Positions 11,369-14,819 of a stretch of DNA of 14,821 bases are shown one piece after another. The notes beneath the pieces were generated by a model, which was given only the letters and a program-made list of their open reading frames with translations, searched no databases and had not been told where the DNA came from. Within the stretch, counting starts at the first letter, position 1. Each line of letters opens with the position of its first letter. The DNA comes from a candidate division WOR-3 bacterium (GTDB lineage Bacteria > Hydrothermota > Hydrothermia > JBDRYB01): the NCBI GenBank assembly GCA_049969615.1, contig JBMFOM010000044.1, positions 1 through 14,821 of the forward strand, in the 5' to 3' direction. The position numbers were made by a program, and so were the translations under genes.

Positions 11369-12568
<1,200 letters not shown>

Positions 12569-12570
12569 TT

Positions 12571-14622
12571 CTAAGACCTCCTATCTTTCTCATCAATAGC
12601 GGGCATGAACCCCGCTATTTTCATCCAGAAGTTTCCTCGACCCTGGGTCAGGTTTCTGAGGTCAGTGGCATACCCGAACATGCGTCTCAGGGGCGCCCTG
12701 GCCTTGATCTTGTCAATCGCGCCTGGTCCGGGCTCAAGGCCCAATACCTCGCCTCCCCGTCCTGCGAGGTCGGCCATCACATTTCCGAGGAACTCCTTTG
12801 GCACCAGAGTTTCAACCTCCACTACAGGTTCAAGAAGAAGACTGCCCCCCTTTTTGAAGGCCTCTTTGAATGCCGCGGTTAAAGCATGCCTGAGGCCTAA
12901 AGTGGTGGTGCCTTCTTCCAGGCTTATTTTCGTAAGTTGCACCTCTACATCAACCACAGGATACCCTGCGAGAGGCCCAAATGATAAAGCCTCAGCAAGT
13001 GCTCGTGCAAGCTCTTGATCAAGCTCATCCGGAAGACCCGGAAAAGGCGCGATCCGGTTTCCAGCACCCCTTTGGGTTGGAGCGACCGTGATCTCAACTG
13101 CTCCGCGGTGCCGGACATCGCCTATTACTCTGTCAAATTCCTCGTAGGCCGTTGCCTTTTCCGCTATTGTTTCCCTGTATGTCACCTGCGGCTTGCCAGC
13201 CCTGACCGGAACCTCAAATTCCCTCCTTATCCTATCAACGATTATCTCCAGGTGGAGTTCACCCATTCCGCGCAAGATGGTCTGACCGGTCTCCTCGTCC
13301 CTGATAACCTGGAGCGTTGGGTCCTCCAGGCTAAGGGCTGTTAACGCCTCGGTGAGTCGTTCCTCGTCCGCAGAGCTCTTTGGCTCCACCGCTACCGATA
13401 CGGCTGGCTCCGGGAAACTCATCCCTTCCATAATTATGGGATGGTCCGGGTCGGCTATGGTGTCGCCGGTCTGAGTGCCGGTCAGGCCTACCAAGACCAC
13501 TATTTCTCCGGGCTGAGCCTCGCGCAGTTGGGTGTGTTTTTCCGCGTGCATCAAGTATATCCTAGTGACGCGTGCAATTTGGCCCGTTCTAACATTGAGG
13601 ATCTTTTGATTTGCCCTGAGAACCCCTGAGTATATCCTAGTGTAATAGAAATAGCCAACATGCTTTTCGTGTTGGACTTTGAATATAACCCCGGCCAAAG
13701 GGGCGTCTGGTCTGGGCGGGCGCTCCTGGATCTCGTTGGTTCCGGGAACGGTCCCCTTTGCAGGGGGGATCTCCAGAGGATTGGGCAGGTAGCGGACTAT
13801 GGCATCCATGATGGGTTGAACGCCCTTGTTCTTGAAGGCCGAACCCATCAACACGGGAACAAATGCCCTGGCTATTACCCCTCTCCTTATGCCAATGTCC
13901 ATCTTTTCGGGGTTCACGAAGCCCTGCGCCTCGTATTCGTCCAATATATCCTCGTGGAATTCGGATGCGGCTATTACTATCTCCTCATACTCCTCGTAGA
14001 AATCCGATCTGTCCACATCTGTCTCGGTGAAAACGAGGCCGATCTCATCCTCCCACACTATCTTTTTCATTCGGAGCAGGTCTATGACGCCCTGCAGGTT
14101 TTCCTCCAGGCCAACCGGTTTTTGGATGACCAGAGGTGCCGCGCCGAGCCTCTCCCTCATCTCCTGGATGACCCTATCAGGGTTCGCACCCATCCGGTCA
14201 AGCTTGTTGATGAACGCGAGCCGCGGAACCCCATATCTGTCTGCCTGGTGCCAGACCGTCTCTGATTGCGATTCAACCCCTTCCACTGCTGAAAATATCA
14301 CCACCAGGCCATCCAGAACCCTCAGAGACCTTTCAACCTCCGCGGTGAAATCAACATGTCCTGGGGTATCAATGATATTTATCCTGTGGCCTAGCCATGT
14401 GCAGGTCGTGGTGGCCGCGGTGATGGTTATCCCCCGCTCGCGCTCCTGGGGCATCCAGTCAGTGACCGTTGTCCCATCGTCTACCTCCCCCATCCTGTGA
14501 GTTCGCCCTGAGTAGAAGAGAATCCGCTCTGTCATGGTTGTCTTGCCAGCGTCAATGTGCGCCGCGAAGCCGATGTTTCGGACTTTTGCAATATCATATT
14601 CCTCAGCCTTTTGCGCTGGCAT
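12571..14622 (-). CDS. fusA: Elongation factor G family GTPase with divergent domain IV (possible recycling-type EF-G2)
   Basis: [56 protein letters not shown] are intact; the domain IV QS/TGG and SYHxVDS loops are absent. Confidence 0.93.
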
Positions 14623-14629
14623 ATCAATT

Positions 14630-14688
14630 CTCCCCTAACCACTATCTCCAAGCCCGAAAATTATAAGGCAAGGCCGGAGGCCGGAGAA
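14630..14688 (-). promoter_or_regulatory. Putative sigma70-type promoter and RBS for the fusA-tuf-S10-spc transcript
   Basis: Perfect TATAAT on the minus strand at 14660-14665; only a weak -35 (TTCTCC) at 17 nt spacing; GGGGAG SD 7 nt before the fusA ATG. Confidence 0.5.
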
Positions 14689-14819
14689 ACCCATTTTCTC
14701 CTTAATTCCCCTGATAAAAAGCCCCCGGCACGGAGGCTGGGGGCTGGCGTCAGGGGAAAGTCCTTTATTAGGACCTGGCCCTTTGCCAGGTTTATGACCT
14801 CAGAGACCTCCTTGTATCC
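14661..14819 (-). CDS. Possible 3' end of an unrelated upstream gene (window edge), PEGA/carboxypeptidase-regulatory-like beta domain; not rpsG
   Basis: The only minus frame that stays open from the edge reads GYKEVSEVINLAKGQVLIKDFPLTP..., resembling GYxxxxxxVxVxxGxxxxxxFxLxP. The other frames stop within 10 codons. None resembles the uS7 C-terminus. Confidence 0.35.
   Translation of the reverse strand, partial: GYKEVSEVINLAKGQVLIKDFPLTPAPSLRAGGFLSGELRRKWVSPASGLAL
14714..14745 (-). terminator. Putative intrinsic terminator upstream of fusA
   Basis: Minus strand GCCCCCAGC-CTCCGT-GCCGGGGGC followed by TTTTTAT, nested within an outer inverted repeat TTCCCCTGA (14706-14714) / TCAGGGGAA (14750-14758). 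Confidence 0.65.

Follow-up and report, generated by a model that had tools for sequence, protein, structure and literature searches.

In the elongation factor G (EF-G) proteins studied to date, translocation involves insertion of the domain IV tip into the decoding centre. The factor is regarded as universal among bacteria and indispensable to them, and its paralogues are seen as add-ons or, in spirochaetes and mitochondria, as a clean split of two GTPase-competent factors. Bacteroides EF-G2, in work from 2023 attributed to Han and colleagues, is said to translocate slowly without GTP hydrolysis. For EFG II-like factors, translocation with little or no GTPase activity has been reported (bioRxiv 10.64898/2026.05.25.727771). 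As hallmarks of EFG II, Margus et al. (PMC3150367) list a P-loop glycine and leucine, weakly conserved domains I-III and a conserved domain IV, with the Asp of the NKxD motif said to be conserved. In mitochondrial EF-G2 (EF-G2mt) and Borrelia EF-G2, changes in loop 1 of domain IV are held to explain recycling without translocation (PMC8203779). The str-operon EF-G1A of Pseudomonas aeruginosa is reported to show 75-fold lower activity in poly(Phe) synthesis and seems to work together with RRF, the ribosome recycling factor (PMC3832671). The subject here is the EF-G gene of a minus-strand ribosomal gene cluster from a candidate division WOR-3 bacterium (genome G000, assembly GCA_049969615.1). 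The window is the whole contig that carries it (C44, JBMFOM010000044.1; 14,821 nt). This gene, referred to as type A, has a canonical G domain and a degenerate domain IV tip, and it survives beside a second EF-G, type B, with the mirror-image decay, in near-complete genomes that lack any EF-G with both centres.

The type A gene (protein P0001, 683 amino acids) occupies positions 12571..14622 of the minus strand and was characterized from its open reading frame (ORF) and translation, TIGR00484, Pfam, an AlphaFold2 model and Foldseek. Its TIGR00484 equivalog score is 743.6 bits, above the cut-off of 659.4; the orthologue in genome G005 scores 765.2 bits and a canonical relative 933 bits. Pfam finds the five EF-G domains, with GTP_EFTU at 212 bits, EFG_III at 105 and EFG_C at 75.7, and EFG_IV at only 43.7 bits. 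The G domain, including the G′ insert, covers residues 13-281 (13780..14586). Within it the motifs AHIDAGKTT (14536-14562), DTPGH, which carries the catalytic His (14356-14370), and NKLD (14197-14208) can be read, all on the minus strand. Outside the tip, the protein has what defines EF-G proper: five domains, a G′ insert and G1-G5 motifs that are canonical down to the catalytic His. On this retained five-domain EF-G body, a ribosome-dependent GTPase that is canonical throughout is predicted. The gene is a vertically inherited EFG I-type gene at the fusA position beside tuf.

Domain IV of P0001, residues 478-600 (12823..13191, minus strand), is predicted to be folded but has a weak family likeness, its EFG_IV score comparing with 153.3 bits for type B and 155.6 for a fully canonical relative. 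Three loops at the tip account for the departure, all read on the same strand. The 14 residues of the loop I region (residues 494-507; 13102..13143) replace the canonical K-Q-S/T-G-G-x-G-Q-Y-G and form a tight β-turn at residues 501-502 in the AlphaFold2 model. The sequence PFPGLPDEL (residues 526-534; 13021..13047) replaces the GGxIPxE[FY] loop and is acidic and about four residues shorter. The 12 residues of the loop II region (residues 565-576; 12895..12930) replace DGSYHxVDSS and are one residue shorter, both of these lengths being judged against canonical relatives. None of the three tip signatures of EF-G proper (loop I K-Q-S/T-G-G-x-G-Q-Y, the GGxIP loop and loop II H-x-V-D-S-S) is present. 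The AlphaFold2 model, built from 45 aligned sequences, has a mean predicted local distance difference test score (pLDDT) of 83.5, and the 10-residue blocks over residues 471-600 score 81-91. The top Foldseek matches to it are Thermus thermophilus EF-G structures. As the fold is confident and the structural matches are EF-Gs, domain IV has been retained, with its three tip loops rewritten.

A sequence-only reading of this DNA had flagged positions 12826-13190, which correspond to residues 478-599 and so to domain IV. Its description of canonical G motifs on an EF-G body is borne out by the motif positions and Pfam domains of P0001. It had also held that both domain IV loops are lost. The canonical motifs are indeed gone, together with those of a third (GGxIP) loop; the loops are, however, substituted, with two of them shortened and none deleted. 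All three peptides that it quoted are found; the loop I peptide spans 13102-13143, for which the reading gave about 13102-13146.

The state of the tip was followed through a class sample of 31 genomes from 11 families, in which three EF-G types separate cleanly: A, with a canonical G domain and a degenerate tip; B, which is EFG II-like; and C, which is fully canonical. Type A is found in 29 of the 31 genomes, the two in which it was not found being G019 (94% complete) and G023 (84% complete). Since the same tip state recurs in 29 genomes, it is not a matter of chance. Around the tip, the near-invariant residues among the 30 class A sequences are G507, T573 (29/30), G576 (30/30) and A580 (29/30), and in the region of loop II near-invariance is limited to the last three. 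Past loop II, the class sequences share a short, conserved alternative motif, T-x-[LMI]-G. The mean loop charge is -3.7 in type A, -1.9 in the canonical copies and 0 in type B.

The second EF-G of the window genome, 665 amino acids in length, is encoded at G000:C11:27423-29333 and is approximately 30% identical to P0001. Its tip is intact (KQTGGHGQYG, GGAIPKEF and DGKYHEVDSS) and its G domain is altered (GNSSSGKT, DTPGY and SKCK). In Pfam terms, its GTP_EFTU score is 87.5 bits, against 212 for type A and 217 for type C. The best NCBIfam model of type B is NF009381, with 729-857 bits against a cut-off of 583. In all 33 motif-typed B sequences Tyr or Phe stands at the position of the catalytic His, and none has the NKxD Asp. 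Type B shows the P-loop glycine, the leucine after GKTT, the non-His catalytic position, the weak G domain and the conserved domain IV of EFG II, and it departs from the published description of that subfamily in having lost the NKxD Asp. A search with the B-type G domain returned 120 homologues, none of which has His at the catalytic site. By regular expression, the NKxD Asp is kept in 97 of these and lost in 18, among which 16 are B's closest relatives; five are uncalled. The EFG II-like homologues that keep the Asp are mostly more distant than the close relatives of B. The B-type gene of family f2 (L103:1296-3170(+), genome G030) encodes 624 amino acids with a canonical tip, and it keeps GxxxxGKT and DTPGF. 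The position aligned with NKxD reads TQYS, by eye, and the G domain is shortened, a further decay of the GTPase domain.

The window genome is 98% complete, and its genes of EF-G length are A and B only. No third EF-G copy or fragment was found in it by a six-frame motif scan and by tblastn with the canonical relative. Type B is the only long open frame in this genome with canonical tip motifs, the other motif match (contig C83) lying beside a stop codon. An RRF gene is present. The sequence-only reading had called for a search for a second EF-G, proposing that a translocase with intact loops is encoded elsewhere. Such a gene exists on contig C11, so A is not the sole EF-G, and loops I and II and GGAIPKEF are intact in it. 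The part of the proposal that needs amending is the nature of this protein, which is EFG II-like: Tyr takes the place of the catalytic His, and the NKxD Asp is missing.

The same inventory is found through much of the class. A B-type match is present in 30 of the 31 genomes, G001 (86% complete) being the exception; 26 of the matches were motif-typed, one was read directly and three are untyped (G003, G020 and G025). Type C occurs in 14 genomes. One type C gene (G006:C107:1626-3810(-), L048) runs over two frames, of 541 and 432 amino acids, as a result either of a frameshift that made it a pseudogene or of an error in the assembly. Fifteen genomes from six families (f1, f3, f4, f6, f9 and f10) have A and B only. 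A TIGR00484 search of five near-complete ones among these, G005 (three contigs, 100% complete), G017 (four contigs), G022, G016 and G004, gave two EF-G-length matches in each, and RRF is present in all five.

An artefact was considered: the loops might stem from faulty assembly or binning or from a pseudogene in decay, or the assembly might lack a canonical EF-G that the organism has. The window genome is in 203 contigs, which leaves room for this. Against it, the A frame is intact, and the tip state is shared by 29 genomes in which the rest of the protein is under clear purifying selection. The assemblies of three and four contigs have the same two genes, and no long open frame in G000 other than B carries a canonical tip motif. 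An artefact is, on these grounds, hardly credible.

Beyond the class, 20 further loci from the phylum yielded 18 EFG I-type genes. The tip is degenerate in six families (f12, which belongs to the same class, f17, f19, f22, f24 and f31), partly degenerate in f42 and canonical in 11 families. In G100, G106, G108 and G177 the EF-Gs are a tip-degenerate gene and a B-type gene only. Genome G052 (family f17) has an additional, canonical third copy (L101, G052:C81:2218-4896) that scores 1073 bits with TIGR00484. A search of the phylum with a B profile suggested B in roughly 222 of 272 genomes at E <= 1e-83, a cut-off that was set after seeing the data, with hits counted by eye; the search does not cleanly separate B from A and C, and the cut-off misses the f2 form. 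The sampled families with no B-like match in this search (f37, f39 and f43) have canonical tips.

Sequence constraint on the two genes is reciprocal: type A keeps its G domain best and its tip worst, and type B does the reverse. In type A (n=30), mean pairwise identity is 0.62 in the G domain and 0.38, 0.25 and 0.35 in the three tip loops. In type B (n=26), the corresponding values are 0.46 and 0.89, 0.69 and 0.94, and in type C (n=13) they are 0.66 and 0.87, 0.59 and 0.83. Between families, the ratio of loop identity to that of the rest of the protein is 0.54 for A in families without C and 0.59 in families with C; for B it is 1.62 and 1.61. As the ratio for A is no higher without C, its tip has not been recruited to a conserved role where a canonical copy is missing. 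By these measures the A tip is under relaxed constraint while the GTPase domain is conserved, which fits the loss of a role in the decoding centre.

Codon usage points weakly in the same direction. Measured against 18 window ORFs of the ribosomal protein region, the codon adaptation index (CAI) in the window genome reaches 0.736 for tuf (96th percentile) and 0.710 for B (84th), with A at 0.657 (31st). With tuf, and S12 and S7 where found, as reference, the index of B exceeds that of A in 17 of 22 genomes.

It is proposed that A and B divide between them the work of one normal EF-G, the best supported reading of the sequences, which we consider as apt to be right as wrong. The step that needs the tip, the translocation of mRNA and tRNA, would fall to type B, which would perform it slowly and without hydrolysing GTP. 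Type A would provide a GTPase-dependent activity that is beyond the reach of B, the main candidate being the RRF-dependent splitting of post-termination ribosomes. The proposal is made because, in the genomes with A and B only, RRF needs a partner, only A has the GTPase residues and only the tip of B is under selection. The loop 1 changes of the recycling-only EF-G2mt and Borrelia EF-G2 (PMC8203779) and the behaviour of P. aeruginosa EF-G1A (PMC3832671) count in its favour. The H88Y substitution is reported nearly to abolish the GTPase activity of Mycobacterium smegmatis EF-G1 (bioRxiv 10.64898/2026.05.25.727771), and in Escherichia coli deletion of loop I is reported to leave recycling intact (PMC4666400).

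A broader form of this proposal covers the phylum and is held more tentatively, as possible though somewhat doubtful. It states that in many WOR-3 bacteria no protein joins the GTPase centre of EF-G to its tip. A B-type protein would perform every translocation without the usual GTP hydrolysis, and maybe without guanine-specific binding, and fusA would be left as the GTP-driven splitting partner of RRF. This reciprocal decay of paralogues would have taken place several independent times in the phylum, and a free-living lineage would be spending no GTP on translocation.

Several observations weigh against a division of labour. Type A keeps the position beside tuf and passes the EF-G equivalog cut-off. 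Both loop I glycines are kept in 18 of the 30 class A sequences. In E. coli, loop II deletions and S588P are reported to abolish or impair recycling as well as translocation (PMC4666400), and loop II of A is rewritten and one residue shorter; a Pro lies at approximately the S588 position in 20 of the 30 sequences, the alignment being read by eye. Type B as the sole translocase would be slow, given that it has no catalytic His or guanine-binding Asp. The EFG II proteins studied to date are described as accessory; that of M. smegmatis is reported to be unable to recycle and dispensable for growth (bioRxiv 10.64898/2026.05.25.727771), and EFG I is held to be indispensable (PMC3150367). GTP hydrolysis is reported not to be needed for the split itself in mitochondria, nor for splitting in mycobacteria (preprint bioRxiv 10.64898/2026.05.25.727771), which makes it less compelling that recycling should require a GTPase-active factor. 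The difference in codon usage is small, and it comes from genomes that share ancestry with each other.

Much of this would be expected if A were still the main translocase, with a lineage-specific and loosely constrained tip, and if B, like other EFG II proteins, had an accessory role or one in stress. The fusA position beside tuf, with rpsL-rpsG ahead of A in most class families, and the TIGR00484 score would follow, as would a G domain as conserved as that of the canonical copies. The tip retains some conservation, with G507, T573 and G576 near-invariant, and the accounts of EFG II as accessory in the species studied and of EFG I as indispensable (PMC3150367; bioRxiv 10.64898/2026.05.25.727771) point the same way. 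The three tip loops are, however, the least conserved part of A, and are shorter and more acidic than canonical ones. The constraint on them is no higher in those genomes where A would be the only GTPase-active translocase. In E. coli, the loop II substitutions H583K, S588P and E589A are reported to impair translocation dramatically, and both loops are called essential for it (PMC4666400). The tip of B is more conserved than that of canonical EF-G, which is hard to explain if B is dispensable. We regard this explanation as unlikely on balance, though a serious contender.

A second alternative, drawn by analogy, is that A has taken up another GTP-dependent task on the ribosome, such as rescue or A-site clearing, back-translocation or quality control, and is neither a translocase nor the normal partner of RRF. 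Conserved GTPase motifs with unconserved tip loops are the pattern reported for archaeal aEF-2p and for Tet (PMC6143161), and the T-x-[LMI]-G motif past loop II is conserved across the class. Such a task looks improbable given that RRF is present and that A is the sole EF-G with GTPase residues in the genomes with A and B only. No gene in the neighbourhood points to a new pathway, and the tet_protect score of A is 368.8 bits, far under the cut-off of 775. A Tet-type identity for A was set aside on that score and an RF3-like identity was ruled out on family-model scores.

The division of labour, if it exists, appears to have arisen from the lineage's own gene. Two trees were built, with FastTree (108 sequences, 665 columns) and by an IQ-TREE quick search (51 rows), both from sets without spdEFG or mtEFG references. 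FastTree unites the 30 class A sequences in one clade (support 1.0), which is nested in a WOR-3 EFG I clade of 47 sequences (support 0.979). Type C forms a separate clade outside this group (support 0.739). In IQ-TREE, the class A clade has a Shimodaira-Hasegawa-like approximate likelihood ratio test (SH-aLRT) support of 100 and the phylum clade one of 93, and the class A stem is long (0.37). At least six changes of tip state are needed among 45 rows. From the trees and these changes, A is the EFG I of the lineage itself, with a tip that has apparently decayed several times. The third G052 copy is placed with EF-Gs from other phyla (SH-aLRT 98), which suggests that it was laterally acquired. 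A lateral origin of type C is only suggested, as a single clade of A and C, expected from a duplication within the class, is not rejected by an approximately unbiased (AU) test (p-AU 0.106, delta lnL 42.4).

The label of EF-G2 paralogue, given to A on first inspection, had to be abandoned: A is the ancestral copy, located next to tuf, and its TIGR00484 score exceeds the cut-off. Of the accompanying suggestion of a new lineage or an independent origin of the split, the independent origin is supported. Because A nests in the phylum's own EFG I clade, its origin is probably independent of the spirochaetal and mitochondrial split. Two further proteins, P0099 and P0100 (691 amino acids), have a canonical G domain and neither tip motif, and they branch outside the WOR-3 EFG I group, near type C, with weak support. 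From these, tip-degenerate EFG I-type proteins may occur beyond WOR-3.

The tuf gene (EF-Tu, 399 amino acids; 11369..12568, minus strand) begins 2 nt past the A stop codon, and the S10/spc ribosomal protein genes come next. Neighbours orthologous to tuf are called EF-Tu by Pfam. A Shine-Dalgarno-like GGGGAG (14630..14635, minus strand) lies 7 nt ahead of the ATG of A and presumably serves its translation. The contig extends just 199 nt upstream of this start codon. Within that distance is a terminator-like hairpin with a T-run (14720..14738, minus strand), identified by a consensus scan only, which gives six sites against 3.7 expected in shuffles. The hairpin is consistent with A opening its own transcription unit. 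In the window genome, rpsL-rpsG lie on another contig (C4), followed by a different ORF and apart from EF-G and tuf, and in G002, of the same genus, the ORFs upstream of A are non-ribosomal. The early description of A as operon-leading is right for this genus on account of the hairpin, the detached rpsL-rpsG and the upstream ORFs of G002.

Across the class, 14 class A loci were inspected for the str-operon arrangement. S7 and/or S12 are upstream in 10 loci, across eight families, and were not found upstream in L008 (the genus of the window), L009, L021 and L034. Two of the 10 have a fragment of an RNA polymerase subunit domain further upstream. Among the 18 EFG I loci of the phylum, S7 lies just upstream in nine, seven of which also have S12, and the other nine are without it. 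Type C is always away from the A locus, for example adjoining lpxB in family f8.

Some further features of these contigs were recorded. The rpsL-rpsG region of the window genome is at G000:C4:40843-41748(-), and an ORF approximately 500 nt downstream of it encodes a putatively RimM-like protein of 178 amino acids. The first 1000 nt of the window (positions 1-1000) have a GC content of 0.44, against 0.51-0.56 over the remaining contig, and a 438-amino acid ORF lies near that contig end (1061-2377, minus strand). Directly past B on contig C11, an ORF (L002:3483-3920(+)) overlaps the B stop codon. It has counterparts at L071:1992-2432(-), L057:2016-2432(-), L059:2050-2442(-) and L067:2042-2431(-), and its products range from 129 to 146 amino acids across families. 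They have a signal peptide and a lipobox-like start, a WxN[KL]MP motif and a C-terminal [AI]VY, with no Pfam match. The ORF occurs in families f1, f3, f6 and f10, followed by a DUF6754 gene in f3, f6 and f10, and similarity between families is weak. It was considered as a translation partner and dropped in view of the signal peptide, the lipobox-like start and the lack of a family match. Two broken frames, each a possible pseudogene or sequencing error, were also seen: a B-type G domain with an in-frame TAA (G064:C70:1338-2192) and a 178-amino acid N-terminal EF-G fragment with an in-frame TAG (G108:C60:9055-9585).

Should the division of labour prove true, the A/B pair would be a natural experiment that parts the GTPase-dependent roles of EF-G from the tip-dependent ones. 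It would test the need for GTP hydrolysis in sustained translocation in the living cell, and the 'elongation factor G' annotated in a ribosomal cluster could not always be taken for the translocase. The findings also matter for annotating genomes of this phylum and for using fusA as a marker in its phylogeny. A partial literature search, judged by titles and the openings of abstracts, found no paper on an EF-G split in WOR-3.

Of the described systems, the spdEFG2/mtEFG2 proteins, EF-G2mt ('ribosome-releasing factor 2') and Borrelia burgdorferi EF-G2, resemble A in their intact GTPase, their altered loop 1, a tip kept by a second factor and the presence of RRF. Loop 1 of EF-G2mt is reported to carry a G-G to G-D change (PMC8203779), and P0001 has it as well (IGDV). 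The changes reported for these proteins are in loop 1 only, whereas A has all three tip loops rewritten. Type A is a vertical EFG I orthologue beside tuf and not a member of a separate paralogue family. In a phmmer search, P0001 scores 662 bits with T. thermophilus EF-G against 491 with EF-G2mt, a proxy only for clade membership. The sole partner of A is EFG II-like, without GTPase residues, and not a translocase of the spdEFG1/mtEFG1 type. The spdEFG2/mtEFG2 arrangement, in which such a partner is present and EFG I is absent, does not describe this genome, the KDG insertion that marks spdEFG1 not having been looked for.

In P. aeruginosa, as is proposed here for A, the str-operon copy is the poor translocase that appears to act with RRF, and a copy elsewhere drives elongation (PMC3832671). 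EF-G1A and EF-G1B are, however, both EFG I proteins, reported to be 84% identical and active GTPases (PMC3832671), while A and B have each lost a different functional centre. The family of B is EFG II, with T. thermophilus EF-G-2 and M. smegmatis EF-G2, and B. thetaiotaomicron EF-G2 is a functional analogue. Elsewhere, EFG II is accompanied by an EFG I that is canonical throughout, and in this class it is often without one. The aEF-2p of Asgard archaea and Korarchaeota has conserved G1-G5 motifs and unconserved tip loops, and is judged an unlikely translocase (PMC6143161). There the degenerate copy is an additional paralogue, most tip residues being retained by the canonical aEF-2 (PMC6143161), whereas here the degenerate copy is the ancestral one; bacteria, moreover, recycle with RRF as well. 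Tet(M) and Tet(O) are likewise EF-G-like GTPases with non-canonical domain IV loops, but A is below the tet_protect cut-off, has full EF-G length and the G′ insert and lies beside tuf.

By analogy, then, the WOR-3 pair is a variant of the known split between EF-G paralogues, following the same logic as spdEFG1/2, mtEFG1/2, EF-G1A/1B and aEF-2p. On the genes compared here, it is new in its configuration. It is the ancestral gene that has lost the tip, and its partner is an EFG II protein without GTPase residues. Near-complete genomes are left with no fully canonical EF-G, contrary to the view of EFG I as indispensable (PMC3150367).

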